Below, piece by piece: positions 1,061-46,463 of a DNA stretch of 64,000 bases. The notes beneath the pieces are model-generated. The model had not been told where the DNA came from and ran no database searches. It saw only the letters and a list, made by a program, of their open reading frames with translations. The DNA lies in NCBI GenBank assembly GCA_041652815.1, contig JBAZGN010000001.1, positions 317,855-381,854 on the forward strand, given 5' to 3'. The DNA comes from Candidatus Omnitrophota bacterium. GTDB taxonomy: Bacteria > Omnitrophota > Gorgyraeia > Duberdicusellales > 4484-171. Each line of letters starts with the position of its first letter. Within the stretch, counting starts at the first letter, position 1. The translations under genes and the position numbers were made by a program.

Positions 1061-1852
1061 ATGCCGAAAGAGCTGGAAGTCAAAATTGAGTTTTCGAAAA
1101 AAATAAAAAACGATGTTTATCTTATAGGGTTTAAGTCAGCTTACATCGCAAGCAGCGCTCGATGCGGGCAATTTTTGCATCTAAAAGTAGACGACAAAAT
1201 TACAATTCTGCGCCGGCCGTTAAGTATTCATAAAATTGAAAAAAACCTTATCTATCTCCTTTTCCGTGTCAGGGGAAGAGGAACCAAGCTCCTTTCACAG
1301 TGTAAAAAAGGAGATGTTTTTGATGCTATTGGGCCCCTCGGCAATGGCTTCCACGTCCCACGCCCTACGCCTAACGCCCAACGTATTCTAGTAGCTGGAG
1401 GAATGGGAGTAGCGCCCTTAGTTTTTCTTGCAGAAAAACTAAGGGAAATCCGAAGCCCTAAATCCGAAACTCGAAACTTAATACTCTTGGGGGCTAAGAG
1501 TAAAAAGGAAGTATTAGCCGAAAGCGAATTCAAAAAGCTTGGGTTTGAAGTTCATATCGCAACCGACGACGGTTCTAGAGGGTTTAAGGGGTCGGTTGTG
1601 GAATTATTAAAAGAACAACTTAGAACTTACAACTTAGAACTTAGAACTAATATTTACGCCTGCGGCCCTAAAGAAATGTTTTATGAAATAAAAAAAGTTT
1701 TGGAAAAATATCCGCAAATACAGGCTCAGGTTTCTTTTGAGCAGTTTATGGGTTGCGGCCTTGGAATATGTTACGGCTGCGCCATTGAGACGAAAGAAGG
1801 ATACAAAAAAGTATGTAAAGACGGCCCGGTATTTGATTTAAAAATTATATGA
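1061..1852 (+). CDS. pyrK: Dihydroorotate dehydrogenase electron-transfer subunit (FAD/NAD-binding, 2Fe-2S)
   Basis: 263 aa. The C-terminal CGLGICYGCAIET...VCKDGPVF 2Fe-2S motif and the RPLSIH flavin-reductase fold are typical of PyrK. Confidence 0.85.
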   Translation: MPKELEVKIEFSKKIKNDVYLIGFKSAYIASSARCGQFLHLKVDDKITILRRPLSIHKIEKNLIYLLFRVRGRGTKLLSQCKKGDVFDAIGPLGNGFHVPRPTPNAQRILVAGGMGVAPLVFLAEKLREIRSPKSETRNLILLGAKSKKEVLAESEFKKLGFEVHIATDDGSRGFKGSVVELLKEQLRTYNLELRTNIYACGPKEMFYEIKKVLEKYPQIQAQVSFEQFMGCGLGICYGCAIETKEGYKKVCKDGPVFDLKII

Positions 1853-3348
1853 TAAAAAAATTAATTTTATTTTTGTTTTGTATATTAATTACAATTTCCG
1901 TTTACGCTCAAATCACGGTGTATCTCAAAAACGGCAGGCAGGTGCAGGGTTATTTCGTAAGCATAGATAATTCCAAGATAGTAATTGCCCAGGGTAGGGG
2001 TAATATTCGAATGAGCCTTTACAAAGAAGAGATAGATAAAATCGAAGGTTTTACTTTTGAGGAATTTTCAAGGGCAAAAGACACCTACGAAGCCGGCCAC
2101 TTCGAGGGCAAGGAAAAAGGATTTGCTTCTTCGTATAAAGATGCCGTTAAGATGGTTTCCGAAAAACGGGGATTAGAATTTATATCAGAAGTTAAAAATG
2201 AAATGATTTCGCGTGAGAACATAAAAAAATACATGGAAAAAAAGCTGCAAGAAGAGGTTAAAGACGAAGAAATTGAGCAAGACAAAAAGCTGCTGGTTAA
2301 ATTAGGAATTATAAGCCCGGGCGCAGACTATAAAAAGATGATTATTGAGCTTTTTACCCGTAACGTTGCCGGTTTCTATGAGCCGAAAGAAAACAAAATG
2401 TATGTTGTGGATGAGGCTGCCTCTTCGTTTTCTCCTTTCCTGCCGTCAGAAGTTGTAATACATGAGCTGGTCCATGCGCTGCAGGACCAATATATTATGC
2501 TTGATTATCTGGATGAAGATCTTAAAAAGGCAAACGACGATAAAGCCCTCGCAATGAAATCCGTCATCGAAGGGGAAGCAACTTATGTATCTTTTAGCAT
2601 CATGGCAGATTATATTAAAAAAAGAACCAGCGGCGGCCCGCAAAGTAAAGTATTTGATTCGATGGATATGGAAAAGTTTATTTTGGAATCGATGATGCTT
2701 ATGACAAAGAGCCTTTCCCCGGAATTTGAAAACAAAGCACTTATTCACTATTTGCTTTTTCCTTACATAAACGGCGGCCTGTTTATTAAATACGCCTACG
2801 ATAACGGTGGCTGGAAAAAGGTCGATTCCGTATACAAAAATTATCCGCTTTCAACTGAGCAGATAATTCATCCTGAGAAATATTTTCTTGTTGAAGATAA
2901 GCCTCTCCCGTTGCCAGGGAAAAATTTTTCATTTCTCGCTCAGGACGGCTACAAAGAAATTTCAAAAGGAACCCTGGGGGAGTTTACCATTTATACATTA
3001 GGAATCACATTCCTGGACGACCTTTATGCGAAAATGCTTTCTGTTGGGTGGGGGAATGATAGCTATTATCTTTATGAAAAAGAAGGTAAACTTACGCTGA
3101 TTATGGATACGCGCTGGGATTCCGTGCTTGAGGCAGAAGAATTCTTTAAAGGGATGAAGGCTCTTATGGATAAAAAATATGCGAACCTTAAATGGAATGA
3201 TAAACAAAACTTTATGATTGCCGAAAACGAAGGCAACATAATTTATATAGGCAAAAAAGATGACGGAGTTATGATAATAGAAGAAGAAGGAAAAGATAAA
3301 AGCACAATAGAAAAAGTAACAAAAATTTGTGTTTTTCCTTATTCATAA
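1849..3348 (+). CDS. Secreted putative zinc metalloprotease (HExxH)
   Basis: N-terminal signal peptide MIKKLILFLFCILITISVYAQ, motif VVIHELVHALQD followed by EGEATY. Its start overlaps the pyrK stop (ATGA), so the two are translationally coupled. Confidence 0.55.
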   Translation: MIKKLILFLFCILITISVYAQITVYLKNGRQVQGYFVSIDNSKIVIAQGRGNIRMSLYKEEIDKIEGFTFEEFSRAKDTYEAGHFEGKEKGFASSYKDAVKMVSEKRGLEFISEVKNEMISRENIKKYMEKKLQEEVKDEEIEQDKKLLVKLGIISPGADYKKMIIELFTRNVAGFYEPKENKMYVVDEAASSFSPFLPSEVVIHELVHALQDQYIMLDYLDEDLKKANDDKALAMKSVIEGEATYVSFSIMADYIKKRTSGGPQSKVFDSMDMEKFILESMMLMTKSLSPEFENKALIHYLLFPYINGGLFIKYAYDNGGWKKVDSVYKNYPLSTEQIIHPEKYFLVEDKPLPLPGKNFSFLAQDGYKEISKGTLGEFTIYTLGITFLDDLYAKMLSVGWGNDSYYLYEKEGKLTLIMDTRWDSVLEAEEFFKGMKALMDKKYANLKWNDKQNFMIAENEGNIIYIGKKDDGVMIIEEEGKDKSTIEKVTKICVFPYS

Positions 3349-3689: not shown

Positions 3690-4838
3690 ATGGAGCCTTT
3701 CATCTCTATAATTGTGCCGGTAAGGAATATGGAAAGAACCATAGGTAAAACCTTCGAATATCTTATGGGTGCAGAGTACCCCCGCGATAAAATGGAAATT
3801 GTATTTGCTGATGGTGGAAGCACCGATAGCACAATTTCAATAATAAAAAACTATCAAAAAGAACACCCTTACATCAAACTTGTAGAAATTCCCAAATGCC
3901 CTTCTCCGGGCTTTGCCAGGACTAAGGCCTTAGAAGTTGTGAAAGGAGATCTTGTGTTCTTCACCGACGGAGATTGCGCACCCTGCAAAGACTGGATATA
4001 TAAAATGCTCGAAGTATTTAAAACGGACGCAAAAATAGGTGCTGTAGGCGGAGAAATACTTACGTTAAAAGTTGACCCAAATAATCTGGTTGAGATTTTC
4101 TGCCAGGCGTTCGGCTTTAACCGGGTTTCCTGGCGTTACGGGAATCTACAGGAAGGCTACTACCCGGATTTAAGCGATATGGCGCCGACTCAAGTATGCG
4201 GGCACAGAGCATATTTCTTTGTTACAGCCAATGTTGCCTACAGAAAAGAAGTCATAGATGAAAATTCACGAAAATTCTGGGACTTGCCTACCGGTGAAGA
4301 TATTGATTTCGGCATAAGAGCAAGAAAAAAGGGGTGGAAATTTTATTTTCTTCCCTCAGCTTCGGTTGAGCACATGCATAGAGCGGATTTGCCGGCGCTT
4401 TTAAAAGTATGGAAATCATACGGCGCAGCGCACCCGCCGCTACTTCGTGCACATAGCACAGACCGCATGGAAATAATTTTTCAGTTTCTCGGCAAATACC
4501 CCGAGCACCCGATATTGCGCATACCATTTTTTGTAAAAGGATTCATTTACATAGGCAACTTTCATCTGATGCATATCTTTGGCGCATTGTTTTTGCTGTT
4601 TTTTATTTTACAATGGGGGTTCCCTTGCTCTTTCTGGCTTAAATTGTTTGCCTGGGTATCGTTGGCGATAACTTCATATGTAAAATTTAAATACTTTAGA
4701 ATGATATTTAACATAGAGCCCTATGACAAATGGATTGAATTCGCGAAGATGAAATATCTAACTAATCTTTATTTTGTTAAAGGCGGGCTGAAAGGTTCAT
4801 TTAAAAACGGAACTTTTTGTATAGAACCTAGCTTCTAA
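3690..4838 (+). CDS. Family 2 glycosyltransferase with a C-terminal multi-pass membrane domain
   Basis: GT-A motifs IIVPVRNMERTI, DGGSTDST and FTDGDC. The C-terminal ~120 aa is hydrophobic. SD GGAGG lies upstream. Confidence 0.75.
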   Translation: MEPFISIIVPVRNMERTIGKTFEYLMGAEYPRDKMEIVFADGGSTDSTISIIKNYQKEHPYIKLVEIPKCPSPGFARTKALEVVKGDLVFFTDGDCAPCKDWIYKMLEVFKTDAKIGAVGGEILTLKVDPNNLVEIFCQAFGFNRVSWRYGNLQEGYYPDLSDMAPTQVCGHRAYFFVTANVAYRKEVIDENSRKFWDLPTGEDIDFGIRARKKGWKFYFLPSASVEHMHRADLPALLKVWKSYGAAHPPLLRAHSTDRMEIIFQFLGKYPEHPILRIPFFVKGFIYIGNFHLMHIFGALFLLFFILQWGFPCSFWLKLFAWVSLAITSYVKFKYFRMIFNIEPYDKWIEFAKMKYLTNLYFVKGGLKGSFKNGTFCIEPSF

Positions 4839-4915: not shown

Positions 4916-5272
4916 ATGTGGATTGGTTATGTAATTTTGGGTTTGGCTGCTGGGACGCTTAGTGGGCTTTTAGGCATCGGCGGAGGATTAATCCTTATAC
5001 CAGCACTTGTTTATATCTTTGGGTTAACACAACATCAAGCTCAGGGCACGACCCTTGCCTTTATGATTCCACCCATAGGTTTACTTGCCGCGCTTAAATA
5101 TTATCACGACGGCAACGTAAAACTTAATATTGCTATGTTCATGTGCTTGGGGTTTTTTATTGGCGGACTGTTGGGGGCAATGTTCGTTAACAAAATACCA
5201 GAACTTTTGCTTAAAAGGATATTCGGCATAGCTTTATTGTTGGCTTCTCTGCGGATGATTTTTGGAAAATGA
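4916..5272 (+). CDS. Half-size TauE/SafE (DUF81, TSUP) family membrane protein
   Basis: 118 aa, LGIGGGLILIPALVYIFGL motif, 4 TM segments. Confidence 0.6.
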   Translation: MWIGYVILGLAAGTLSGLLGIGGGLILIPALVYIFGLTQHQAQGTTLAFMIPPIGLLAALKYYHDGNVKLNIAMFMCLGFFIGGLLGAMFVNKIPELLLKRIFGIALLLASLRMIFGK

Positions 5273-5327
5273 ACCCTTTCCTAAGCCCTAACGGCGTTTA
5301 GTTTAAAAGGCAAAAGAGAATAATTCA

Positions 5328-5759
5328 TCAACGCACGTCTTTCTCGATTATTTTAAGTAAATCTTCTCTTAATTTATCTTTTGTCCACAGGCAGTAACCT
5401 ACATAAAGGTCATATTTCAGCGAATAAAATACATTAGGAGCGCATTCCCAGGTTTTAAAACTCATCGGTAATTTACTATAAGAAATATCAATATACGTAC
5501 CTTCTTTCTTTCCGATTTTCTTCCATGGTTCACCATATGTAATGTAAAGCTCGTCCCTGCGCGATTTCTTTAGCGCAGTATTATCAAAAGCCTTGAGGTC
5601 ACTGTGGTTTTGTTTTAACACAATGATATCATCATAAATCTTCTTGATTATTTCGTTGCCGCCTTGGATGTAAGATTCGGCGAAAGCATTTGGAGCAAAG
5701 GGTATCAAGGAAACGAAAAATAGAATTGCCAGAATGCACGCTTGCATATTTTTTGTCAT
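5328..5759 (-). CDS. Hypothetical secreted protein (island gene 6)
   Basis: Signal peptide MTKNMQACILAILFFVSLIPFAPNAFA. No recognisable domain. Confidence 0.5.
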   Translation of the reverse strand: MTKNMQACILAILFFVSLIPFAPNAFAESYIQGGNEIIKKIYDDIIVLKQNHSDLKAFDNTALKKSRRDELYITYGEPWKKIGKKEGTYIDISYSKLPMSFKTWECAPNVFYSLKYDLYVGYCLWTKDKLREDLLKIIEKDVR

Positions 5760-5853
5760 TTTTACCCCTTTCTTAAAAGTACCCCAGTCACCGGTCTTAA
5801 GCCGCCCAGTTTTGACTTGCCAGTAGAGCTATGGGGCGCTTCTTTAGCAAAAA

Positions 5854-6189
5854 TTACTTTATAAACCTAATACATAGGGGATACTTAAAATCTTCACCTT
5901 TACTTGTCTTTACGGCTGCAATGATTACCATAACATAATTAAAAATTATTACCGCAGGGAAAAGAAAAAAGCCAATCAGCATAAATGCCGAAAGCCACGC
6001 CCCAATTAGATAAATTATGATAGAAATCTGAAAATTTAAAGATTCTTTGCCATTCTTGTCGACGGCTGCCGATTCGCCATTCTTAACTAACCAGAGAATC
6101 AAAGGTCCCAAAAATCCGATTAGCCCCAAAAGATGACATGCCATTGCTAAATTGTTCTCTTGTTTATTCTGCGCTTCTGCCATAAACAC
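5854..6189 (-). CDS. Small membrane protein, DUF4870-like
   Basis: 111 aa with two to three TM helices (HLLGLIGFLGPLILWL). Confidence 0.45.
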   Translation of the reverse strand: MFMAEAQNKQENNLAMACHLLGLIGFLGPLILWLVKNGESAAVDKNGKESLNFQISIIIYLIGAWLSAFMLIGFFLFPAVIIFNYVMVIIAAVKTSKGEDFKYPLCIRFIK

Positions 6190-6237
6190 CTCCTTAATGA
6201 CCCCGACGTAACGTCGGCGGGATACAATAAAATAATA

Positions 6238-6648
6238 CTATCCCCAAAATATCCATCCGAATAACCGTACAGCTATATAATAAAGCTTTGCAAACCCAAA
6301 GCCATTATTTTTCAAAATAATATAAAATTCTCTATCAACTTCCTTGCGTTTGATGAATGATTTTACATCTCGGCTAAACTGGTAAAAAACGTCGTGGATT
6401 AAAGAAGCATAATAAGTTTTGCTTTGCCCTGTATCAAAATTTAAAACCCCTTCAAATGTCCCGACATAAACATCTTTTATCTTTAACTTAGGGCTGCAGC
6501 CATCCCAGGCATAGCCTTTATAATTGCTGCCTTTTACGATAACCGTGCCATCAGAATCAAGCTTAAGCCACTCATTTTCGAATGCGCGTTCTTTTATCAG
6601 TGATGGATAGTTATAATCTTTCTTTATACAATATACGTAAACACCCAT
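6238..6648 (-). CDS. Hypothetical protein, DUF1353-like
   Basis: Motifs YAWDGCSPK and SLIHDVFYQ recall the phage-associated DUF1353. Confidence 0.45.
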   Translation of the reverse strand: MGVYVYCIKKDYNYPSLIKERAFENEWLKLDSDGTVIVKGSNYKGYAWDGCSPKLKIKDVYVGTFEGVLNFDTGQSKTYYASLIHDVFYQFSRDVKSFIKRKEVDREFYIILKNNGFGFAKLYYIAVRLFGWIFWG

Positions 6649-6651
6649 ACT

Positions 6652-6903
6652 TTACTTTTTTCTTGCCGTTGTTATGAGGGGCAACGCAAAGCAAAATACT
6701 AAAACTATTGCGCCGACAGCTATGGTATATTGCGCAATAAACAAATGTAATGAAACCGCCGCTTTAGGTATTGTCCCCAGGGCAACAGGTGAATTTTTCC
6801 AGCTTTCCATTGCTATTTGCATTACCAGGTTGAACATAATATTCAAGGCGATAAATGAAAGAAATAAAATAATCGCACGTAAGATTACTGATACCCACTT
6901 CAT
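6652..6903 (-). CDS. Small membrane protein (83 aa)
   Basis: Two to three hydrophobic helices, with a 3-nt gap to the downstream gene. Confidence 0.45.
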   Translation of the reverse strand: MKWVSVILRAIILFLSFIALNIMFNLVMQIAMESWKNSPVALGTIPKAAVSLHLFIAQYTIAVGAIVLVFCFALPLITTARKK

Positions 6904-6967
6904 TTTTTATCCTCCTTATTGCCAACGATAAACTATTTCGCCATCCAAGATTTACACTTTACTATTT

Positions 6968-7216
6968 TTATTCTTCTTTACGCAGTTTCCTTTTCAAGAA
7001 TTCCCCGAAAAGAAAAAGCATTGATGAACAAAACAGGCCTTTGGCAAAAAAATACATCTGAAGATTCATCTCTGCCGGGTCAATAATGTTTTTACCTCTT
7101 AAAAACGGCGATTTATCGCCAAAGCTTACAAAATACCCGCCGAAATAGAGCCAAGAACAAATAATCAGAATCAAAAGCGCTACGATTGGGTTTATCCATT
7201 TGAGATAGAATCTCAT
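6968..7216 (-). CDS. Small membrane protein (82 aa)
   Basis: Hydrophobic N-terminal helices and a basic C-terminus. Confidence 0.4.
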   Translation of the reverse strand: MRFYLKWINPIVALLILIICSWLYFGGYFVSFGDKSPFLRGKNIIDPAEMNLQMYFFAKGLFCSSMLFLFGEFLKRKLRKEE

Positions 7217-7243
7217 TTGACCTCTTTTTTAGTAAATAGTATC

Positions 7244-8071
7244 TTATTTATTCCGCAATTTTTCTATTTTTTCTATATGTAATTTGTCCTTAATAGTTAA
7301 TGCTTTTCCAGCAAAATATTCTTTTTTATTGCGAAAAGAAAAACTTATTTCATGATTTTCTTGTGATGCTATTTTTATATCGGTTACTAAAAGATTAGTA
7401 TAAGAAATTTTTTGTTCATGCAACTCTGTTTCAATAACCCATTTTGTTGGTTTTTTTATATTTGTTCCAGGGATATTATACGGCAATTGTGACATTGCCA
7501 AAGTGGCGTGGCGTATAGTTTTAATAAAATCAGCCAGTCTCATTAGTTGTTTTGATGGGTGACAATTTGGCGGAAGCAGTAAGCCAATTATTTTCTTATG
7601 TTGCTTTTTTACAATGCTGATAGATTCTGCAAGGTCACTGTCATTCGAAATTATCACAGCACAGTCATATTGATTCATCCAGGCATCGTTTAGTAAATGA
7701 ACAGCAAGATTAACATCCGAGCCTTTTTCTTCAGTTTTAATTATTTTGACAAATTTTTGATTATCTGTGGGGTTGGCTAATATAGCCCAGGCGTCATGGC
7801 TAAGAAAATGTCCGTAGTATTCAGAAAATCCGGAAGTATATTCTTTTAATGCCTTTATATATGTTTGTTGATTTTTGGGTTTATGGGGGTCAGTTTTACC
7901 AGAAACCGTGGCCGTGAAGTATTTAATCTCTTCGATTTTGTGTGTTTTATCTAAGATCGTTTGGCAAAGTTTTTTTAAGTCCAACCATTTGTAAGGAGAA
8001 TCTTTCAGGCCGCGATAATAGAGGTTAAAGCCATCAATATATATCCACGTTCTTTGAGTCATTGTGGACAA
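7244..8071 (-). CDS. NYN-domain (LabA-like) putative RNase with a C-terminal extension of unknown function
   Basis: WIYIDGFNLYY, KGSDVNLAVHLLNDA and AVIISNDSDLAESI are hallmark NYN/PIN-like acidic-residue motifs. Confidence 0.65.
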   Translation of the reverse strand: MSTMTQRTWIYIDGFNLYYRGLKDSPYKWLDLKKLCQTILDKTHKIEEIKYFTATVSGKTDPHKPKNQQTYIKALKEYTSGFSEYYGHFLSHDAWAILANPTDNQKFVKIIKTEEKGSDVNLAVHLLNDAWMNQYDCAVIISNDSDLAESISIVKKQHKKIIGLLLPPNCHPSKQLMRLADFIKTIRHATLAMSQLPYNIPGTNIKKPTKWVIETELHEQKISYTNLLVTDIKIASQENHEISFSFRNKKEYFAGKALTIKDKLHIEKIEKLRNK

Positions 8072-8319
8072 AAATAAGCAGGGGCTGCCAAAAGGCAGCC
8101 CCGCGCCTTGGGTCGAAGCCCAAGGGTAGTTAGCATATTTCTTTCAATTAAAATATATACCATAACAACCATTTTTGTCAAATTTTTATTTTACTCATTA
8201 TACCACCCCCATCATAAATCAAAAGTATTTTTAAGCACAGATTGTATAGCTAGAGTTAACCTAAATCAACGAATAAACTAACATTTGAAACTACCCGCAT
8301 TCTATAATACAATAGGTAA

Positions 8320-9222
8320 ATGAATTTACGCGTAAAAGTAGGTAATTTCAACCTTCCAACCCCGGTTATTTGCGCTTCCGGGACTTTTGGCTACGGAGAA
8401 GAGTTAAAAGGCCTGGTTAACTTTAAAAATATCGGCGCAATAACTACCAAAACCATTACTCCGCAGGCGCGTGCCGGAAACCCTCCCCCTAGAATTTATG
8501 AGACAGAATACGGAGTTATCAATTCAATCGGACTGGAAAATCCCGGGCTAGAGGGCTTTCTGGAAGAAAAACTCCCAATGCTTGTTAAGCTGCCCGTAAA
8601 ATCAATCATAAGCGTCGGCGGGTTTTCGCAGGAAGATTACGAGGAAATAGTTAAGCGGCTCGAAGACAAAAAAATAGAAGCTCTTGAAATTAATCTTTCC
8701 TGCCCTAATATCAAAATGAAAAAAATGTTTTCTCAAAACAAAGAGTTAACTTACAATCTAGTGAAGTCTTTACGAGCGCTTACCAAAAAAACTCTGATCA
8801 TAAAAATTACACCGGAAATAGATGATATTGTAGAAATCGCAAAGGCAAGCAAAGAAGCAGGTGCGGATGCACTTTCCCTTGTAAACACTTTCTTTGCTCT
8901 TGCAATAAACATCGAAACAAAAAAGCCTTATTTGGGAAGTATTCATGGCGGCTATTCAAGCCGGGCAATCAAGCCGCTTGCCTTATATAAAATCTGGCAG
9001 GTTTACAAGAGTGTGGATATACCAATTATTGGCGGAGGCGGCATTGAGAATACAAACGATGCCATTGAGTTTTTTCTTGCCGGAGCAACCGCAATAAGCA
9101 TCGGCACGATAAATTTAGTTTATCCAAACCGGGCAACTGATATAGTAAAAGGGCTGAAAGATTACATGAAGAGAAAAAAGATAAGCGATATAAATGAATT
9201 AAGGGGAGGAATGCTCGCATGA
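8320..9222 (+). CDS. pyrD: Dihydroorotate dehydrogenase catalytic subunit (class 1B)
   Basis: NLPTPVICASGTFGYGEE, LSCPN and IIGGGGIE motifs. Confidence 0.9.
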   Translation: MNLRVKVGNFNLPTPVICASGTFGYGEELKGLVNFKNIGAITTKTITPQARAGNPPPRIYETEYGVINSIGLENPGLEGFLEEKLPMLVKLPVKSIISVGGFSQEDYEEIVKRLEDKKIEALEINLSCPNIKMKKMFSQNKELTYNLVKSLRALTKKTLIIKITPEIDDIVEIAKASKEAGADALSLVNTFFALAINIETKKPYLGSIHGGYSSRAIKPLALYKIWQVYKSVDIPIIGGGGIENTNDAIEFFLAGATAISIGTINLVYPNRATDIVKGLKDYMKRKKISDINELRGGMLA

Positions 9223-11959: not shown

Positions 11960-13714
11960 ATGGATAGAAAAGGAATTATTACAAAAATTGTCGCAAACAT
12001 GGTAAGCGTGCGGGTGGATGGCTCTGTCACCCAGAACGAAGTTGCCTATATTTTGCATGGGCCAGAACGCCTCAAAGCCGAGGTTATCCGCATCCGCGGT
12101 AAAATCGCTGAAACCCAGGTGTATGAATCAACAACAGCCCTTAAGGTTGGAGATGAAGTAGAGCTTACCGGAGAGTTGCTTTCGGTTGAATTAGGCCCTG
12201 GCCTCTTGGGGCAAATTTTCGATGGCCTGCAAAATCCGCTTCCTCAGATAGCAAAAGAATGCGGATTTTTTCTTAAGCGCGGCGTATATAAAAAGGCACT
12301 TGTTGATAGTACAACCTGGGAATTTAATCCTCTGATTAAAAAGGGCGATACTCGCCGGGCGGGAGATAAAATTGGATATGTCAACGAACACATTTTTAAG
12401 CACTACATCATGGTGCCCTTTGGTTTAAAGGGAATACTTAAAATAAATTCCATAGCCGCCAAAGGCACCTATGATCTTACACAGCCTATAGCTACGATTG
12501 AAGAGCCAAACGGAAAAACACACGAAGTATTTTTAAAACAAATCTGGCCGGTAAAAATTCCTATTGAAGCCTACGCTGAAAAAATAAAGCCAATTGAACC
12601 ATTGGTTACTAAAATACGTATCATAGATTCGCTTTTTCCGGTTAGCCTTGGGGGAACTTATTGCGTTCCCGGGCCTTTCGGCGCAGGCAAAACTGTCTTA
12701 CAGCAATTAATCAGCCGGCACGCCGAAGTTGATGTAGTAGTTATTGCTGCCTGCGGCGAACGCGCCGGCGAAGTTGTCGAAACCTTAAAAACTTTTCCGC
12801 AGATAAAAGACCCGCGCACAAATTTACCTTTATCCGAGCGCACAGTTATTATTTGTAATACCAGCTCAATGCCTGTTGCGGCACGTGAATCAAGCGTCTA
12901 TACCGCTGTAACTATTGCCGAATACTACAGGCTTATGGGTTTAAACGTAATGCTTCTGGCTGATTCAACAAGCCGCTGGGCGCAGGCGATGAGAGAAATG
13001 TCCGGCCGGCTAGAAGAGATTCCGGGAGAGGAAGCTTTTCCTGCTTACCTTGAATCTCGGATTGCCTCATTTTATGAGCGAGCAGGTTTAGTTCGTTTAA
13101 ACGACGGCACATTCGGTTCGGTTACAATTGGTGGGACGGTAAGCCCTGCCGGAGGAAATTTCGAAGAACCGGTAACGCAGGCGACATTAAAAGTTGTCGG
13201 AACATTCCATGGCCTGTCACGCGACAGGTCAAACGCAAGAAGGTATCCGGCAATTGACCCGCTAATAAGCTGGAGTAAATATAAAGGTATTATTGAAGAT
13301 AGTTTAATTGCGCGCGGGCATGCAGTGCTTGATAAAAGCCATGAAGTTGAGCAGATGATGAAAGTTATTGGTGAGGAAGGAACCTCTCTGCCGGATTTTG
13401 TAGAATATCTTAAGGGTGAATTTTTCGATTTTGTATATTTGCAGCAGAATGCATTTGACGCGGTGGATGAATCGACAGAAGCGCCCCGCCAAAAATATAT
13501 TTTTGGTTTTATTTATTCAAATATTTTTGAAAAAGATTTTAACTTTATTGATAAAGACGCAGCCAGGCATTTTTTCCATACCCTTCGGCAAGCTTTCAGA
13601 GGATGGAACTCAAGCGAGTTTGAGAGCGAAGAGTTTAGAAGAATAGAAAGAGAAATAGTTAGTGCAATTAGTATAAAAATAACCAAGCTCCAAGATACAA
13701 TAACCAAACAATGA
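11960..13714 (+). CDS. ntpA: V/A-type ATPase catalytic subunit A
   Basis: P-loop GPFGAGKTVL, 584 aa. The last codons and stop codon lie inside repeat E1. Confidence 0.95.
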   Translation: MDRKGIITKIVANMVSVRVDGSVTQNEVAYILHGPERLKAEVIRIRGKIAETQVYESTTALKVGDEVELTGELLSVELGPGLLGQIFDGLQNPLPQIAKECGFFLKRGVYKKALVDSTTWEFNPLIKKGDTRRAGDKIGYVNEHIFKHYIMVPFGLKGILKINSIAAKGTYDLTQPIATIEEPNGKTHEVFLKQIWPVKIPIEAYAEKIKPIEPLVTKIRIIDSLFPVSLGGTYCVPGPFGAGKTVLQQLISRHAEVDVVVIAACGERAGEVVETLKTFPQIKDPRTNLPLSERTVIICNTSSMPVAARESSVYTAVTIAEYYRLMGLNVMLLADSTSRWAQAMREMSGRLEEIPGEEAFPAYLESRIASFYERAGLVRLNDGTFGSVTIGGTVSPAGGNFEEPVTQATLKVVGTFHGLSRDRSNARRYPAIDPLISWSKYKGIIEDSLIARGHAVLDKSHEVEQMMKVIGEEGTSLPDFVEYLKGEFFDFVYLQQNAFDAVDESTEAPRQKYIFGFIYSNIFEKDFNFIDKDAARHFFHTLRQAFRGWNSSEFESEEFRRIEREIVSAISIKITKLQDTITKQ

Positions 13715-13794
13715 CCAATAACCAAATCTCAATAACCAAACAAAAACCAATATCTCCGTTTGGTTATTGGATATTGGAATTTGTTTGGAGCTTG
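13677..13794. repeat. Compound palindrome, AACCAAACAA family (E1), overlapping the ntpA 3' end
   Basis: aaataaccaagctccaagatacaataaccaaacaatgaccaataaccaaat...ccgtttggttattgg. It is >90% identical over ~60 nt to E2 at 33439. Confidence 0.85.
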
Positions 13795-17809: not shown

Positions 17810-17819
17810 TTTTATGACA

Positions 17820-17948
17820 AACTCTAAACCCGAAATCCTAAACTCTAAACAAACTCGAAACTACAAATTACAAATTCCAAACGTTTTGAGTTTAGAGTTT
17901 CGAGTTTATAGTTTATTTAGAGTTTCGAGTTTAGTGTTTAGGGTTTAT
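17820..17948. repeat. Compound palindrome, AACTCTAAAC family (C1)
   Basis: aactctaaacccgaaatcctaaactctaaacaaactcgaaac ... gtttagagtttcgagtttagtgtttagggtt. The copy is at 23709. Confidence 0.9.
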
Positions 17949-18508: not shown

Positions 18509-18582
18509 GGGCGCATAGCTCAGCTGGTTAGAGCACTTCTTTTACAAGGAAGGGGTCTAAGGTTCGAATCCTTATGCGCCCA
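18509..18582 (+). tRNA. tRNA-Val (anticodon TAC)
   Basis: Cloverleaf folded by hand: acceptor GGGCGCA/TGCGCCC, D-arm GCTC-AGCTGGTTA-GAGC, anticodon stem CTTCT/GGAAG with loop TTTACAA, T-arm TAAGG-TTCGAAT-CCTTA, discriminator A. CCA is not encoded. Confidence 0.9.
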
Positions 18583-18588
18583 TATAAT

Positions 18589-18677
18589 AGCTTTCAGCCA
18601 TCAGCTATCAGCAATCAGCCCCTCCCAAGGGGCGCCCTTGAAGGGTGGCTGAAGACTGACGACTGATAGCTGAAAGC
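18589..18677. repeat. Compound palindrome, CAGCTGAAAGCTG family (B2), with a GC-rich core cccaaggggcgcccttgaaggg
   Basis: agctttcagccatcagctatcagcaatcagcc...ggctgaagactgacgactgatagctgaaagc. Confidence 0.9.
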
Positions 18678-18685
18678 GTAAAAAA

Positions 18686-21995: not shown

Positions 21996-22002
21996 TAAAA
22001 GA

Positions 22003-22078
22003 AACCAGAAACCAGAGTACAGAAACCAGAAAAAATGTTTTTTATTATCTGGTTTCTGGTTACTGGTTTCTGTAAACT
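22003..22078. repeat. Compound palindrome, GAAACCAGA family (single copy in window)
   Basis: agaaaccagaaaccagagtacagaaaccagaaaaaatg...ctggtttctggttactggtttctg. Confidence 0.85.
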
Positions 22079-30689: not shown

Positions 30690-31667
30690 TTAATTATCAG
30701 GCAAGCTGTTTATAAAGGTAAGCAATTCGCTGTAACTATTAACTTTACATATTGAGCCGCGCACTCTGGCGCAGGCCTCAAAATCCCTAAGATACCACAG
30801 GCTAATTTTCCTCATAAAACCGACCCTTACCGAATCTTTTACTTCCTTATATTTTTCTAAAAGGCTAAGGTGCTTTTTAAGCACTGCCTTTCTTATTTCC
30901 ATGTTTACCGCAGTTACAGCTTTACCTTCCATGTAATTAGCGATATCTTTAAGCATCCATGGCCTTCCTAAAGCGCCCCTCGCCACAAGAATTCCGTCGC
31001 AACCCGTTTCATCAAACATTTTTTTTGCTAAGTGCGGTATCAGAATATTCCCGCTGCCAAATACAGGAATATTTACTGCATCTTTTATTGCTTTTATTAA
31101 ATTATAATCAACGTTTCCGCTATAGCCTTGAGTTTTAGTCCTGCCGTGGACAAAAAGAGCAGCTGCGCCGCTACCTTCGCATGATTTTGCCAGTTCGGTT
31201 ATCTGTTTTTTATCTTTGTCCAGATAGCCTACCCTGATTTTCGCTGTTACCGGAACATTGAGGCTGCTTGAAAGTTTTTTGATGATTTTTGATAAAGCCT
31301 CGAGATCATTTAATAAATAGGCACCGCATTTTTTCTTAATCACTTTTCTTACCGGACAGGCGCAATTGATATCTAAAAAAGAAATACCCGTTAAATCTAT
31401 AAGCTGATGTGCGGCTTCCAGCATTTTTTCCGGGTCCCTTCCCAGTAACTGTCCGGCAATAGGCTTGTCTTCCTCGGTTGTCTTAATGAGTCTTAAGCTG
31501 CGAATCCGGCTATAAATGAGAGAGTTGGCATCCAGCATCTCAAAGAAACAAAATTTAGCGCCATGTTCACGGCAAATAAGCCGGAAAGCCAGGTCAGAAC
31601 ATCCTGCCAGAGGAGCAAGGAATACATTGGTATTTATAACTTTAGAGCCTATTTTGATTGAATGCAT
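30690..31667 (-). CDS. dusB: tRNA-dihydrouridine synthase
   Basis: FLAPLAGCSDLAFR, LDINCACPVRKV and the C-terminal helical domain. The symbol is assigned by family only. Confidence 0.8.
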   Translation of the reverse strand: MHSIKIGSKVINTNVFLAPLAGCSDLAFRLICREHGAKFCFFEMLDANSLIYSRIRSLRLIKTTEEDKPIAGQLLGRDPEKMLEAAHQLIDLTGISFLDINCACPVRKVIKKKCGAYLLNDLEALSKIIKKLSSSLNVPVTAKIRVGYLDKDKKQITELAKSCEGSGAAALFVHGRTKTQGYSGNVDYNLIKAIKDAVNIPVFGSGNILIPHLAKKMFDETGCDGILVARGALGRPWMLKDIANYMEGKAVTAVNMEIRKAVLKKHLSLLEKYKEVKDSVRVGFMRKISLWYLRDFEACARVRGSICKVNSYSELLTFINSLPDN

Positions 31668-31677
31668 ATTTTCCCGT

Positions 31678-31771
31678 ATAGAAGCGGATTCCCGCGGAGC
31701 TAAACGCGGATGTACGCACGGTAATCGGTTTGCATTTATCCGCGTTGATATCCGCGGCCATCCGCTTCTAT
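31678..31771. repeat. Compound palindrome, CCGCGGATA family (K1), with perfect 12-bp terminal inverted repeats ATAGAAGCGGAT / ATCCGCTTCTAT
   Basis: Seen directly. The paralog K2 at 37790-37883 has identical termini. Confidence 0.9.
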
Positions 31772-33438: not shown

Positions 33439-33588
33439 AAATAACCAAGTTCCAAGATACAATAACCAAACAATGGCCAATAACCAAATTTCAATAACCA
33501 AACAAAAAAATAACAAATCCGTTTGGTTATTGGGTATTGAATATTGTAATTTGTTTGGAACTTGTATCTTGGTTATTGGTTATTTCTA
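33439..33588. repeat. Compound palindrome, AACCAAACAA family (E2), nested inside CACAGAT arms
   Basis: aaataaccaagttccaagatacaataaccaaacaatggccaataaccaaat...ccgtttggttattgggtattgaatattgtaatttgtttggaacttgtatcttggttattggttatt. Confidence 0.9.
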
Positions 33589-34389: not shown

Positions 34390-34470
34390 TATCACGTCGC
34401 ACGTATCACGTATCACGTATCACGTCTTTTTAAAACCTGTTACGTGCTACCTGATACGTGGTACGTTAAA
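34390..34470. repeat. Compound imperfect palindrome, GTATCACG x4 facing CGTGCTACCTGATACGTGGTACG
   Basis: Seen directly. It overlaps the false 5' extension of the next ORF. Confidence 0.75.
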
Positions 34471-36545: not shown

Positions 36546-37793
36546 ATGAGACGAGTAGTCATAACCGGCATTGGCGTAATCTGTGCAGCTGGCGAGGATA
36601 AAAACACTTTTTACGATAATATTGTCGCCGGTAAACCCTTTATTGAAAGAGTAGAGAATTTTGATGTAAGTTTATTTGTGTCAAAAATAGCTTCACAGGA
36701 TTTAGGCTTTGACCCGCTCAAATTTGGCATAAAAGACCACCAGCGTATGGATAGATATGTCCAATTTGGTATTGCCGCGGCAAAACAGGCAGTTGAAGAC
36801 AGCCACATTGATTTTAATAAAATAAACAGAAAAAAATGCGGTGTAATTTTAGCAAACGCAATTTGCGGCACGCGTTTTATGGAGGAGGAATTCCTTCTTG
36901 TAACTGACTGGGGAAAGAGGCCAATCGATCCGCGTAAAGGCCGGCCTTATCTTTATGATGCGGCAATGTTTAATACGCCAAGCGCAGAAATCGGAGCAAT
37001 TTATCATACGCAAGGGCTTAATTGCACGGTTTCTACCGGTTGCACTGCTGCTACAGATTCTTTAGGATTTTCTTTTGAACTTATCCGCGAAGGCAGGCAG
37101 GATATAATTATTGCCGGTGGTACTGAAGCGCCGGTTTGCCCGATTACTTTTGGAGCTTTTGACGTGGTAAATGTTTTGGCAAAAAATAACGATGAACCGC
37201 ATAAAGCCAGCCGGCCTTTCGATAATAAAAGAAACGGTTTTGTAATTTCTGAAGGCGCGGGCGTTGTAGTGCTTGAAGAATTAGAGCACGCAAAAAAGCG
37301 CGGCGCGCATATTTACGGAGAATTGGTTGGTTACGGTACAAGCTGTAATGCCTTTCATATGACGGATTTACCTGAGGACGGCGAAGCGATGGAGCGCTGC
37401 ATCAAAGATGCGATGAAAGACGCAGGAGTTAAAAATGAAGATATAGACTATATAAATACGCATGGCTCATCAACCAGGCAAAATGACGTTTTTGAGACAA
37501 ATGCTTACAAGGCAGTGTTCGGTGATTATGCTTACAAAATTCCGATAAGCTCTATAAAATCAATGATTGGCCATCCTTTGGCGGCAGCCAATGCTGTAGA
37601 GAGTGTTTTATGCGCGATGATTTTTGAAAAAGGATATTTGCCCCCCACGATAAATCAGGAAGAGCCAGACCCAAAATGCGATTTGGATTATATTCCAAAC
37701 GTGAAAAGACAATATATGCCTAATTACATATTAAAAACAAGCAGCGGATTTTCCGGAATACATTCGTCTATTATATTTAAGAAATATAAATAG
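36546..37793 (+). CDS. Beta-ketoacyl synthase, KS-alpha (FabF-like, catalytically complete)
   Basis: Cys in STGCTAATDS, His in INTHGSSTRQND, His in SMIGHPLAAANAVE. The stop codon TAG lies inside the terminus of repeat K2. Confidence 0.85.
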   Translation: MRRVVITGIGVICAAGEDKNTFYDNIVAGKPFIERVENFDVSLFVSKIASQDLGFDPLKFGIKDHQRMDRYVQFGIAAAKQAVEDSHIDFNKINRKKCGVILANAICGTRFMEEEFLLVTDWGKRPIDPRKGRPYLYDAAMFNTPSAEIGAIYHTQGLNCTVSTGCTAATDSLGFSFELIREGRQDIIIAGGTEAPVCPITFGAFDVVNVLAKNNDEPHKASRPFDNKRNGFVISEGAGVVVLEELEHAKKRGAHIYGELVGYGTSCNAFHMTDLPEDGEAMERCIKDAMKDAGVKNEDIDYINTHGSSTRQNDVFETNAYKAVFGDYAYKIPISSIKSMIGHPLAAANAVESVLCAMIFEKGYLPPTINQEEPDPKCDLDYIPNVKRQYMPNYILKTSSGFSGIHSSIIFKKYK

Positions 37794-37883
37794 AAGCGGA
37801 TATCCGCGGATAGCTACGCGGATAAACGCCAGCGAATTTCTGTGCGTCTATCCGCGTTTAAATCCGCGGCAATCCGCTTCTAT
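37790..37883. repeat. Compound palindrome, CCGCGGATA family (K2), termini ATAGAAGCGGAT / ATCCGCTTCTAT
   Basis: atagaagcggatatccgcggatagctacgcggataaacgcc...gtctatccgcgtttaaatccgcggcaatccgcttctat. Confidence 0.9.
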
Positions 37884-39495: not shown

Positions 39496-39558
39496 TAGCT
39501 GTCAGCCATCAGCTTTCAGCTATCAGCTGAAGACTGACGACTGAAGGCTGAAAGCTTA
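39496..39558. repeat. Compound palindrome, CAGCTGAAAGCTG family (B4)
   Basis: agctgtcagccatcagctttcagctatcagctgaagactgacgactgaaggctgaaagct. Confidence 0.85.
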
Positions 39559-39563
39559 TAAAT

Positions 39564-44944: not shown

Positions 44945-46402
44945 ATGAAGATACTGTTCGTCATGCCGAAAATCGGCGCTTGGGCAACCCATGGAAATCA
45001 TTTTGCACCTAACCAGTTATATGCCCAGTGGGGAGCATATATCCGTGAGAAAGGTTATGACAATCTTGAGGTTTTAGACGCAACTGTCTTGGGTATTCCC
45101 ATTGAACACTTGGCTGAGAAAGTTAAAGAAAAAAATCCTGACGTGGTTGTCTTGGGCGATATGATTCATTGCTCGGTAGGCTTTGGCATAATCTGGCATT
45201 TTAACCAGGCTGCCGCAAGAATAAAACAGGTTTTACCAAAAACGAAAATAATTATGGGCGGGCTTTGGTATTCAGCCTTACCCGTTCAGACCTTGGAGGA
45301 TAATCCCGCGATAGATTATGTGGTTATGGGCGAAGAAGAATCCTTTTATGACCTTATCGATGCAATCGATAAAAATAAAAATATGAAAGATGTTGCGGGG
45401 GTAACCAGCCGCATAGATGGTAAGCCGGTAATGGGCCCGCATAAGCCGCTATTGCAGGATTTGGATAAATTGCCGCTTCCGGCTTATGATTTATTTCCTA
45501 TGGATAAATACATAGGGCATACTTTCTGGAAACCGTTTGTTGAAATGATAACGTCCCGTGGCTGCCCCTCAGCTTGTACTTTCTGTTATGAATGGGACCA
45601 GTATGACCCGCGCAGCCCGCAGGATTTTTTAACCTGGCGCGCAAAATCACCGGAGCGCGTTATTGAAGAGCTCGAGCTTTTAAAGAAAATGGGCACAAAA
45701 GTTGTGGTTATACAGGATGATAATTTTAATGTTAATCCCGAGAGAGTTGAAAAATTTTGTAACTTAAAGAAACAAAAAAACAATCCGATTAAATGGGTTT
45801 CTTTAGGAAGAGCTGTTGACTGGATTAATTGCGAAAAAATTTTGCCTCTAATGAAAGAAACCGGATTATTTATGGGGGTATTTGGAATTGAAGTGACCAC
45901 GCCGGAAGAGCTTAAAAAAATCGCCAAAGGAATAACCATTGATCAGATTAAAAAAACAATCGATATTTTACGCGCCCAGAATATCGCAATTGTCGCTGAT
46001 ATTATGATGGGCTTTGATGACGATACGGAATATTCCATAAAGCAGAGATTTGAATTTACCGACGAAGTTGACCCGGATATTCTTTGGGTTGGTTACGTTA
46101 CCCCTGCTCCTAATTCACCTATCTGGAGGCAAAGGGTAAAACGCGGGGAAATAGACCTTAAAAAAATTGATTTTCTTAAGTGGGATTTTTTACACCCGGT
46201 TATGCCGACAAAGCATTTAACCTTGGAAGATTACGGAAGGCTTGGCGCCTGGTGTATGCGCGAATTTTTCTCAAAACCGGGGCGCATTCAGAGAATTATG
46301 ACCAGTAATTTCGACCCGCTGGCAAAACTCTGCTTCGAGGATGTTATGCGCGGAGTTTCAAAGTGGGAAGCAGGAGCGGTTAAGGGGGAAAAGCATATTT
46401 AA
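44945..46402 (+). CDS. Class B (cobalamin-binding) radical SAM enzyme
   Basis: N-terminal B12-binding-like domain. CPSACTFC is a CxxxCxxC motif. Confidence 0.8.
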   Translation: MKILFVMPKIGAWATHGNHFAPNQLYAQWGAYIREKGYDNLEVLDATVLGIPIEHLAEKVKEKNPDVVVLGDMIHCSVGFGIIWHFNQAAARIKQVLPKTKIIMGGLWYSALPVQTLEDNPAIDYVVMGEEESFYDLIDAIDKNKNMKDVAGVTSRIDGKPVMGPHKPLLQDLDKLPLPAYDLFPMDKYIGHTFWKPFVEMITSRGCPSACTFCYEWDQYDPRSPQDFLTWRAKSPERVIEELELLKKMGTKVVVIQDDNFNVNPERVEKFCNLKKQKNNPIKWVSLGRAVDWINCEKILPLMKETGLFMGVFGIEVTTPEELKKIAKGITIDQIKKTIDILRAQNIAIVADIMMGFDDDTEYSIKQRFEFTDEVDPDILWVGYVTPAPNSPIWRQRVKRGEIDLKKIDFLKWDFLHPVMPTKHLTLEDYGRLGAWCMREFFSKPGRIQRIMTSNFDPLAKLCFEDVMRGVSKWEAGAVKGEKHI

Positions 46403-46463
46403 GCTTTCAGTCGTCAGCCGTCAGCTTTCAGCTGATGACTGAAAGCTGATAGCTGATAGCTGT
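46402..46463. repeat. Compound palindrome, CAGCTGAAAGCTG family (B5)
   Basis: agctttcagtcgtcagccgtcagctttcagctgatgactgaaagctgatagctgatagctg. Confidence 0.85.

Follow-up and report, generated by a model that had tools for sequence, protein, structure and literature searches.

The 64,000-nucleotide stretch of Candidatus Omnitrophota bacterium DNA analysed here (the window; contig JBAZGN010000001.1 of assembly GCA_041652815.1) contains, at positions 5328-8071, a block of six open reading frames (ORFs) on the minus strand, one of which encodes a putative ribonuclease (RNase) of the NYN family. It is highly probable that this block has a composite origin: five genes native to an accessory slot of the chromosome and a solo NYN cassette recently inserted beside them. 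The cassette encodes a conserved two-hairpin RNA between its promoter and the NYN gene, and such a composite block harboring an RNA-controlled candidate NYN toxin module is probably the best overall explanation of the locus as its sequence stands. The parts of the cassette and its flank on the pyrD side are the following (L numbers designate the loci compared).

About 7235-8192: NYN cassette of about 0.96 kb, comprising promoter, leader RNA and NYN gene.
8152-8181, minus strand: sigma-70-type promoter (TTGACA, 18 nt spacer, TATATT).
8072-8131, minus strand: conserved leader or partner RNA with two hairpins and an intrinsic terminator at its end.
7244-8071 (ORF) or 7244-8062 (probable gene), minus strand: NYN gene, family of Hma-embedded candidate 9 (HEC-09), 272 aa.
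8197-8319, plus strand: native pyrD upstream region, the other half of the split spacer, matching L006, L012 and L007.

A pyrD query against species-representative genomes gave eight Omnitrophota loci. In six of these relatives (L005-L009 and L012), pyrD is 79-89% identical to that of the window, and none of the six carries NYN between the TauE gene and pyrD. The L006 interval between p82, the gene that adjoins NYN in the window, and pyrD is 226 bp long. L006 aligns to positions 6987-7234 and 8197-8236 of the window, two stretches that lie only about 35 bp apart in L006, and the breakpoints are 7234/7235 and 8196/8197. Furthermore, the closest NYN loci, L003 (74% protein identity) and L017 (60%), align to 7259-8192 and 7297-8192 of the window, respectively, and both alignments end at the same point just upstream of the promoter, which is itself inside the stretch conserved with these two loci. 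The gap relative to L006 and the shared end of L003 and L017 therefore delimit an insert at about 7235-8192.

The NYN homologue of L003 adjoins a tyrosine integrase gene. That of L017 is the last gene of an island encoding a tyrosine integrase and a TIR (ThsB-like) protein, located between the thrS-infC-rplT cluster and V-ATPase genes; L017 is the only locus with a TIR neighbour among the NYN homologues examined. The remaining neighbours of NYN in L003 and L017 are unlike the five other genes of the window, and no conserved link of NYN with small membrane proteins was found among the neighbours of its homologues. Hence, NYN would have arrived later than the five other genes, as a self-contained single-gene cassette of about 0.96 kb that integrated in the divergent p82-pyrD spacer, and we regard such a separate, later insertion as very likely. 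Since homology with L006 stops at 7234, only 18 nt of native spacer are left 5' of p82 after the insertion. Transcription of p82 and of the genes that follow it may now rely on read-through out of the NYN cassette or start from promoter-like sites within NYN, for instance 7501-7473.

The earlier note on this DNA, made from its sequence, had already identified the gene as NYN, and a Pfam search supports this assignment (NYN, E 1.3e-12). The start codon is most likely ATG 8062 (272 aa) and not TTG 8071 (275 aa ORF), because the deposited protein and the N-termini of homologues agree with the former and TTG 8071 lies in the U-run of the terminator. An exact-sequence look-up with the 275 aa ORF gave no match because the deposited NYN protein begins at ATG 8062. 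Residues 6-211 of the protein align to positions 2-202 of the 203-position PADLOC profile of HEC-09 (PDLC04163, E 1.5e-43), and the protein also matches phrog_7929 (E 1.4e-62). The acidic residues D13, E114, E115, D119, D144 and D146 (275 aa ORF numbering) are invariant in 19 homologues. The AlphaFold model has a predicted local distance difference test score (pLDDT) of 88.6, and its best Foldseek matches in PDB are LabA-like 2qip and the MARF1 NYN structures 6fdl and 5yaa (E 7e-9 to 1e-4, target TM-score 0.69-0.74, 13-17% sequence identity). LabA/VPA0982 and MARF1 thus have the catalytic fold in common with the NYN protein of the window, but they are cellular proteins of RNA metabolism for which neither a partner RNA nor a mobile context is known. 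At the C-terminus of the window copy, residues about 206-269 make up an additional helix and a four-stranded beta-meander, shared with a few Omnitrophota relatives only.

More than 7,500 NYN homologues were detected at E <=1e-5, most of them about 207 aa long and 60-75% identical, in Omnitrophota, Bacteroidota, Ignavibacteria and Proteobacteria. A single-protein query retrieved 5 metagenome-contig loci and no viral-contig loci; an alignment query was needed to obtain more. By tblastn, the family was found on 450 plasmid records. Plasmids that carry it include a 4.6 kb Mob plasmid of E. coli, a 5.2 kb Mob plasmid of Klebsiella, and plasmids of Leptospira and Xanthomonas. On Mycobacteriaceae plasmids NYN adjoins ParA, and in the Mycobacterium prophage prophiGD43A-1 it lies between the integrase and the immunity repressor. 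Judging from these matches and contexts, NYN is a predicted mobile RNase of the HEC-09 candidate defence family.

HEC-09 (PADLOC-DB v2; Payne et al.) and the protein studied here are alike in that the profile match is full-length, the NYN protein is solitary and the acidic residues are conserved. The copy of the window differs in being embedded in, or adjacent to, neither Hma nor any other known defence system, its neighbours being pyrD and small membrane proteins, and in having the additional C-terminal beta-domain of 60 residues. Such a location in or beside a defence system is what had led to the proposal of the family. The accessible part of the HEC-09 preprint (bioRxiv 10.1101/2024.01.29.577857) describes a MARF1-like NYN RNase and, as found here, reports its fold to be nearest to those of LabA-like proteins and MARF1. 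That part of the preprint does not mention an associated RNA, whereas the cassette of the window has one.

This RNA is preceded by the promoter TTGACA-N18-TATATT (8181-8152), which matches the consensus at 11/12 positions and is the best promoter-like site in 5000-8500. Hairpin 1 (CCTTGGG/CCCAAGG, 8125-8106) is followed by a CGC linker (8105-8103) and by hairpin 2 (GGGGCTGCC/GGCAGCCCC, 8102-8081), whose 9 bp stem includes 8 G-C pairs. Together with the U-run TGCTTATTTTT (8080-8070), hairpin 2 constitutes an intrinsic terminator, the best terminator-like site in 5000-8500, and the distance from the U-run to the NYN ATG is 9 nt. The minimum free energy of the leader is -38.6 kcal/mol (z = -4.8).

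The same leader layout was found upstream of NYN in L003, L017, L018, L019, L021, the Leptospira plasmid and most of 75 IMG/VR loci, with stems that vary in sequence between loci. A strict finder (two perfect stems of at least 6 bp, then a T-run) recognised it in 40 of 66 distinct NYN upstream regions, versus 1.7% of shuffles and 2.2% of windows taken elsewhere in the loci. Furthermore, conservation among the three Omnitrophota cassettes is higher over the 130 nt of promoter and leader (82/77/80%) than over the coding sequence (74/68/68%).

A covariance model (R1) was built from 13 seeds (alignment A8). It gave 57 hits at E <=1 in 571 kb, 46 of them (counted from coordinates) directly upstream of NYN on the same strand, including 33 loci outside the seed. 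The window contains a single hit (8072-8131, E 3.5e-10). In the R1 alignment, 98.7% of the cells are paired versus 66% in shuffles, all 14 base pairs (14/14) show changes on both sides, and the covariation score is 0.81 versus 0.22 in shuffles (reached by 0/500) and 0.07-0.20 when the partners are slid. The alignment also contains 42 G-U cells, which indicates that the RNA is on the sense strand. The MAFFT alignments of the leaders (A4, A5 and A7) put hairpin 1 out of register and RNAalifold recovered hairpin 2 only; N-padded rows (A6 and A8) keep the hairpins in register. L042 and L044 each have a second R1 hit, which falls within coding sequence and was rejected as a false positive. Pairing of the 5' flank with the sequence that follows the U-run, which would mask the ribosome-binding site, is clear in L018; this helix is not conserved elsewhere and was dropped.

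We give the existence of a conserved leader RNA a very high probability. No Rfam 15 family matched (E <=1) in 5000-8500 of the window or at the leaders of nine diverse loci, and the literature search found no description of NYN associated with an RNA antitoxin, a type III toxin-antitoxin (TA) system or a leader. The RNA is thus absent from Rfam and is a candidate new RNA family.

From the positions of promoter and terminator, the leader RNA would be roughly 70-85 nt long. In the loci examined, the terminator is located 4-39 nt before the NYN start codon. A terminator placed just before the start codon implies that NYN would be made only by terminator read-through and that the short RNA would be the main product, present in excess. 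Such obligatory read-through control is, from this geometry, rather probable. Most likely, the RNA would be the partner that silences a toxic RNase: it would attenuate NYN expression in cis and would probably act in trans too, as an RNA antitoxin, and the NYN genes of HEC-09 would be type III-like TA, addiction or abortive-infection modules. The trans-acting antitoxin role itself is a suggestion drawn from sequence to which we give somewhat less than an even chance.

The leader may instead be nothing but a cis-acting attenuator or insulator that keeps the level of a costly RNase low, possibly responding to a signal or autoregulated by NYN at hairpin 1. The short distance between terminator and start codon, which leaves no space for a second promoter, is consistent with this explanation, as is the presence of a single leader copy in nearly all loci. 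Moreover, the leaders of distant homologues vary in sequence and always have a terminator before the start codon. However, two actinobacterial lineages have the motif in convergent orientation at the 3' end of NYN, next to the stop codon: L024 (Mycobacterium prophage, 3898-3966, minus strand) and L128 (Paenarthrobacter plasmid, 2131-2190, minus strand). These copies score 33 and 30.5 bits (E 1e-8 and 8e-8), and the NYN proteins there have 41-45% identity. Being convergent, the motif cannot attenuate NYN transcription at these loci, and in the one examined for this, the Mycobacterium prophage, a promoter-like site of its own (TTGACA-N17-TAGCCT) precedes it.

Furthermore, the conservation of hairpin 1 and of the linker exceeds the requirements of a terminator. 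On the 4.6 kb E. coli plasmid (L023, 1081-1193), 3.5 tandem copies of a 33 nt hairpin unit precede a terminator and then NYN. On the Klebsiella plasmid (L104, 2280-2490), the leader is about 200 nt long and contains a repeated GCGATTAAGTTACGC element and a terminator. Both are small ColE1-type plasmids, and their leaders adjoin the replication-control RNA RNAI. Orphan copies of the motif were also found. In L116 (930-993) and L120 (2871-2934), only about the first six NYN codons are left, and in L121 (motif at 2187-2245, minus strand), NYN is reduced to MRAYIYITP and ...PIPGTTIKKPAAW, each ended by a stop codon. These three remnants retain the promoter and both hairpins. Loss of the toxin with retention of the RNA is the order of loss expected of an addiction module. 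The convergent copies, the array of the E. coli plasmid and the orphan copies thus speak for a role of the RNA beyond that of a cis brake, and we consider a purely cis-acting leader unlikely. Tentatively, the RNA would be a trans-acting antitoxin or sensor and HEC-09 a new, very widespread RNA-protein family of TA or abortive-infection systems. In such a family, the RNA partner of a PIN-like toxin might be non-repetitive, and be encoded upstream, as an array or convergently.

Several points weigh against an RNA-controlled toxin module carried by an inserted cassette. No target-site duplication and no inverted or flanking repeat is visible at the cassette ends, and no mobility gene lies beside the cassette, so that the flanks do not indicate an insertion mechanism. 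RNA production, NYN toxicity and the interaction of RNA and NYN are all deduced from sequence. Covariation was counted on a model-fitted alignment and the seed hairpins were chosen by the hairpin finder, so that the numbers lean towards structure. R1 misses the leaders of the distant homologues L104 (Klebsiella), L105 (Xanthomonas), L126 (Mycolicibacterium) and L127 (Mycobacterium), as well as that of the E. coli plasmid L023; these were read by eye where possible. The window has one hairpin 1 unit and not the tandem repeats that define type III antitoxins, and NYN is unrelated to ToxN-type toxins. In addition, according to the accessible part of the HEC-09 preprint (bioRxiv 10.1101/2024.01.29.577857), HEC-09 with its putative native promoter region gave no protection against the phages tested in E. 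coli. Finally, a pattern scan of IMG/VR gave 20 motif matches, 18 of which were confirmed by R1, and an intact NYN gene follows 4 nt downstream in only five of these 20 pattern-first matches, so the motif can occur without NYN. Some copies lie in unrelated contexts, after a HigB-like ORF or between phage structural genes, and for some a generic terminator role is possible.

The lack of intact NYN downstream of 15/20 matches, these contexts and the lack of a defence phenotype would fit a motif that is a generic strong terminator or a hitch-hiking remnant, NYN then being an ordinary RNA-processing or anti-defence enzyme. However, the scan required the motif first, and L116, L120 and L121 are clear NYN deletion remnants. 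Taken from the protein side, the motif accompanies NYN in most homologues across phyla and is found almost nowhere else in the 571 kb. Moreover, the compensatory changes affect both stems, and promoter and leader are better conserved than the gene that they precede. A generic terminator is, on this evidence, improbable.

The hairpins could also act as DNA: they might be a site of recombination, for instance, or a single-strand origin. In favour of this, the cassette itself encodes no recombinase and has the motif close to one end. In L119 (3112-3173), a motif copy is directly followed by a tRNA-like sequence (recognised by eye), which may mark an integration junction and would suit such a role. 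Yet each of the 42 G-U cells would read as an A-C mismatch if the opposite strand were the one that folds. Hairpin 2 is also followed by a U-run, and upstream of hairpin 1 there is a sigma-70 promoter, both in the window and in every other locus looked at, the mycobacterial copy included. Furthermore, the cassette reaches about 60 nt past the motif. A role at the DNA level thus appears extremely improbable.

Among known systems, those of type III consist of one promoter followed by a structured non-coding RNA, a Rho-independent terminator and an endoribonuclease gene (PMC5086642). The window resembles ToxIN, CptIN and TenpIN, at the sequence level only, in the order of promoter (8181-8152), leader, terminator and ATG 8062. 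Like these systems, the NYN family is found on plasmids and prophages, and its RNA varies together with the protein clade. The 3.5 copies of a 33 nt unit of the E. coli plasmid homologue (NZ_CP145651.1) are comparable with the 5.5 copies of 36 nt of ToxI. The window differs by its single unit and by a toxin candidate that has a NYN/PIN-like fold and does not belong to the ToxN, CptN or TenpN families. The Actinomycetota NYN loci also differ, the RNA gene being convergent and not upstream.

The nearest precedent for the mechanism proposed for NYN, as far as the accessible part of the source shows, is AbiF with its RCd22/abiF RNA motif (PLoS Genet 2025, PMC12373285). There, a prophage-borne toxin is repressed in cis by a conserved RNA, which also binds the toxin directly and thereby neutralises it in trans. 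However, AbiF is an Abi_2/HEPN-like protein and not a NYN protein, and its RNA motif is different: the Rfam abiF model does not match the NYN leader.

The remaining genes of the block, none of which belongs to the cassette, are the following.

5328-5759, minus strand: p143 ORF, secreted or periplasmic protein with a signal-like hydrophobic segment at residues 1-19, no Pfam family.
5854-6189, minus strand: DUF4870 membrane protein with three transmembrane-like segments (Pfam PF09685).
6238-6648, minus strand: DUF1353-like protein, conserved Omnitrophota family.
6652-6903, minus strand: p83, small protein with two transmembrane-like segments.
6968-7216, minus strand: p82, small membrane protein.

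The earlier note had described six tightly packed minus-strand genes between pyrK and pyrD. All six ORFs are present, and the ORF list bears out that they form the only multi-gene minus-strand block of the window, the sole other minus-strand ORF of at least 100 aa without plus-strand overlap being 30690-31667. The packing of 3-30 nt was overstated, since the gaps measure 94, 48, 3, 64 and 27 nt. In addition, the block does not adjoin pyrK (1061-1852), four plus-strand genes (p499, p77, a GT2 glycosyltransferase gene and a half-size TauE gene) being intercalated; pyrD and pyrF lie downstream of the block. In other samples, two short contigs match the window with 100% identity.

The proposal had been that the whole block is either a prophage remnant or a single defence or toxin island gained by horizontal transfer, and that NYN would cooperate with the membrane and DUF1353 proteins. 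Some features agree with such an island: the block has the lowest GC content of the window (tied with one other region), its six genes are all opposite in strand to their neighbours, NYN matches HEC-09, phrog_1158 and phrog_7929 are matched, and L010 lacks the whole block. However, the DUF4870 and DUF1353-like genes are present on the minus strand of the TauE-pyrD interval in 6/6 close relatives. The other members vary, p143 being found in L005, L006 and L012, p83 in L012 and p82 in L006-L009, and the shared genes have the same order and strand in L005-L009 and L012. The five non-NYN genes thus occur at this locus in six relatives that all lack NYN, and NYN homologues elsewhere have unrelated neighbours. 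Presence of the block at the same place in related genomes, with native composition, had been named as what would speak against acquisition, and this is what was found for five of the six genes. Horizontal acquisition therefore stands for NYN alone. Likewise, PADLOC identifies NYN as HEC-09 and has no model that matches the other proteins of the block.

Moreover, neither phage structural, lysis nor integration genes were detected near the block with Pfam and PHROG, which leaves the prophage remnant without its hallmarks, and no integrase or transposase was found near it in the window with Pfam, PHROG and NCBIfam. No tRNA gene is next to the block, the only one of the window being at 18509-18582. 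The PHROG matches of the block are limited to phrog_7929, of unknown function, and phrog_1158. The reading of the six genes as one acquired island is largely refuted, and we consider it very improbable.

The DUF1353 label, on which the phage connection partly rested, holds in the sense of a distant relationship. The protein matches phrog_1158 (E 1.1e-15); its match to Pfam PF07087 (E 0.0029) is restricted to the C-terminal half, and its score of 17.6 bits is below the 22.5 threshold. Within the family, 19/24 members match Pfam DUF1353 at E <=0.01, all below the threshold (best E 1.7e-4), and a profile search of PDB with the family gave nothing. On these profile scores, we treat the protein as a putative distant relative of Pfam DUF1353. 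It is 61-90% identical to its counterparts at the same position in the six relatives. Its 417 detected homologues, 68-93% identical among the 120 listed, come almost all from Omnitrophota where the source is named. In the genome of L011 and in another metagenome-assembled genome, the gene lies in unrelated, ordinary chromosomal neighbourhoods. This is hence a conserved chromosomal family of Omnitrophota, and the protein is not phage cargo here.

DUF4870 is a full-length member of Pfam PF09685 (E 9.8e-35, positions 1-107 of a 107-position profile), its 119.2 bits being well above the cut-off of 25. For p143, p83 and p82, no family match was found in PADLOC, NCBIfam or Pfam. Homologues of p143 in L005, L006 and L012 are 53-72% identical and located at the same position, p83 has a 67.5% identical homologue at the same place in L012 only, and p82 is 70-87% identical in L006-L009.

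The block had also been singled out as AT-rich. It does have 35.6% GC versus 39.6% for the window, and no more than 0.7% of same-sized sliding windows have a GC content that low, with a tie at 38.6-41.7 kb. However, no signal of foreign DNA appears at synonymous sites. GC at third codon positions (GC3) is 0.367 in the block and 0.374 elsewhere (p = 0.94), whereas at first positions (GC1) it is 0.403 versus 0.479 (p = 0.0005). The drop in GC1 indicates that the AT-richness reflects the amino-acid composition of small proteins rich in Lys, Ile, Phe and Asn. The synonymous-codon z value of the five conserved genes taken together is -1.7 and that of NYN is +0.8, against a range of -3.3 to +1.6 for the remaining genes. 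Codon choice and GC3 of the block are native, and the atypical synonymous-site composition expected of a foreign island was not found in the six genes.

The absence of palindromes from the block, also taken as a signal in the earlier note, is not significant (2.2 expected, Poisson P(0) about 0.11). The window contains 52 inverted repeats of at least 14 nt, only five of them in the first 13.6 kb and 47 in 13.6-64 kb, and the spacers of the block total only 236 nt. With 2.2 expected, so little spacer and so few palindromes in the whole first 13.6 kb, their lack is uninformative.

It is thus very probable that the five genes are native, in a vertically inherited, plastic slot. They would be lineage-specific small envelope proteins inherited vertically in this Omnitrophota clade, in a TauE-pyrD slot that gains and loses small genes. 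In L010, whose pyrD is 64% identical, only 18 nt separate the end of the TauE gene from pyrD, and this layout is the empty ancestral state of the slot. In L011, two unrelated ORFs occupy the interval between the TauE position and pyrD. The cargo between the DUF1353-like gene and pyrD also differs among relatives: RadC and an XRE regulator are encoded in L008 and L009, a secreted DUF6794 protein is encoded in the slot of L005, L006 and L012, and several membrane proteins are encoded in the relatives' slots too. This slot resembles known variable accessory slots and integration hot spots in that different cargo is found between conserved core genes among relatives. It differs in being small (1-5 kb), in being dominated by small envelope proteins over known defence systems and in lacking a recombinase.

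Other features of the region were also recorded. The RadC (JAB domain) and XRE genes and their neighbours are located at 7664-8983 in L008 and at 1664-2959 and 3833-5354 in L009. The slot of L009 encodes a DUF6036-like nucleotidyltransferase (22.3 bits, Pfam cut-off 23.6) adjacent to a 215 aa protein without family, a pair that may be a TA system. The half-size TauE/SafE protein (4916-5272, 118 aa) aligns to positions 2-110 of the 237-position profile. Its length of 118 aa is kept in all eight (8/8) Omnitrophota relatives, so that it does not represent a fragment. The 499 aa Hvo_1808-like surface protein (1849-3348) has a Leptospira-type N-terminal domain, and the start of its gene overlaps the pyrK stop codon. 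This gene is present in L005 and L006, is absent from L008, L010 and L012, and is a second variable insertion between pyrK and pyrD.

Elsewhere in the window, intergenic palindromes have arms made of short tandem repeats, with units such as AACCAAT/AACCAAA, ACGTATC and CAGCTNT (13681-13788, 17819-17939, 18592-18682, 22000-22072, 33439-33585, 34394-34466, 39508-39559 and 46402-46456). Another palindromic element of about 94 nt, ATAGAAGCGGAT...ATCCGCTTCTAT, has two near-alike copies 6 kb apart (31678-31771 and 37790-37883) and looks like a dispersed repeat of the repetitive extragenic palindromic (REP) or miniature inverted-repeat transposable element (MITE) type.

These data indicate that small genes can be native even when they form an AT-rich run on the opposite strand, the composition signal being one of amino-acid content. 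As an island the block is ordinary, and its value lies in the promoter-RNA-terminator-RNase architecture of the NYN cassette. A conserved, covarying RNA attached to NYN in Omnitrophota, Leptospira, enterobacteria, Actinomycetota and many viral contigs provides a testable mechanism for HEC-09, and the leader motif is a candidate Rfam family. If the RNA controls or neutralises the RNase, this would be an RNA-antitoxin system with a PIN-like toxin, and the type III concept would no longer be limited to ToxN-like toxins and tandem repeats. If so, an addiction module would explain the presence of NYN on mobilisable plasmids of 4-5 kb and beside ParA on Mycobacteriaceae plasmids, and assays of HEC-09 might best take into account the RNA and plasmid-stability phenotypes, beyond plaque assays.

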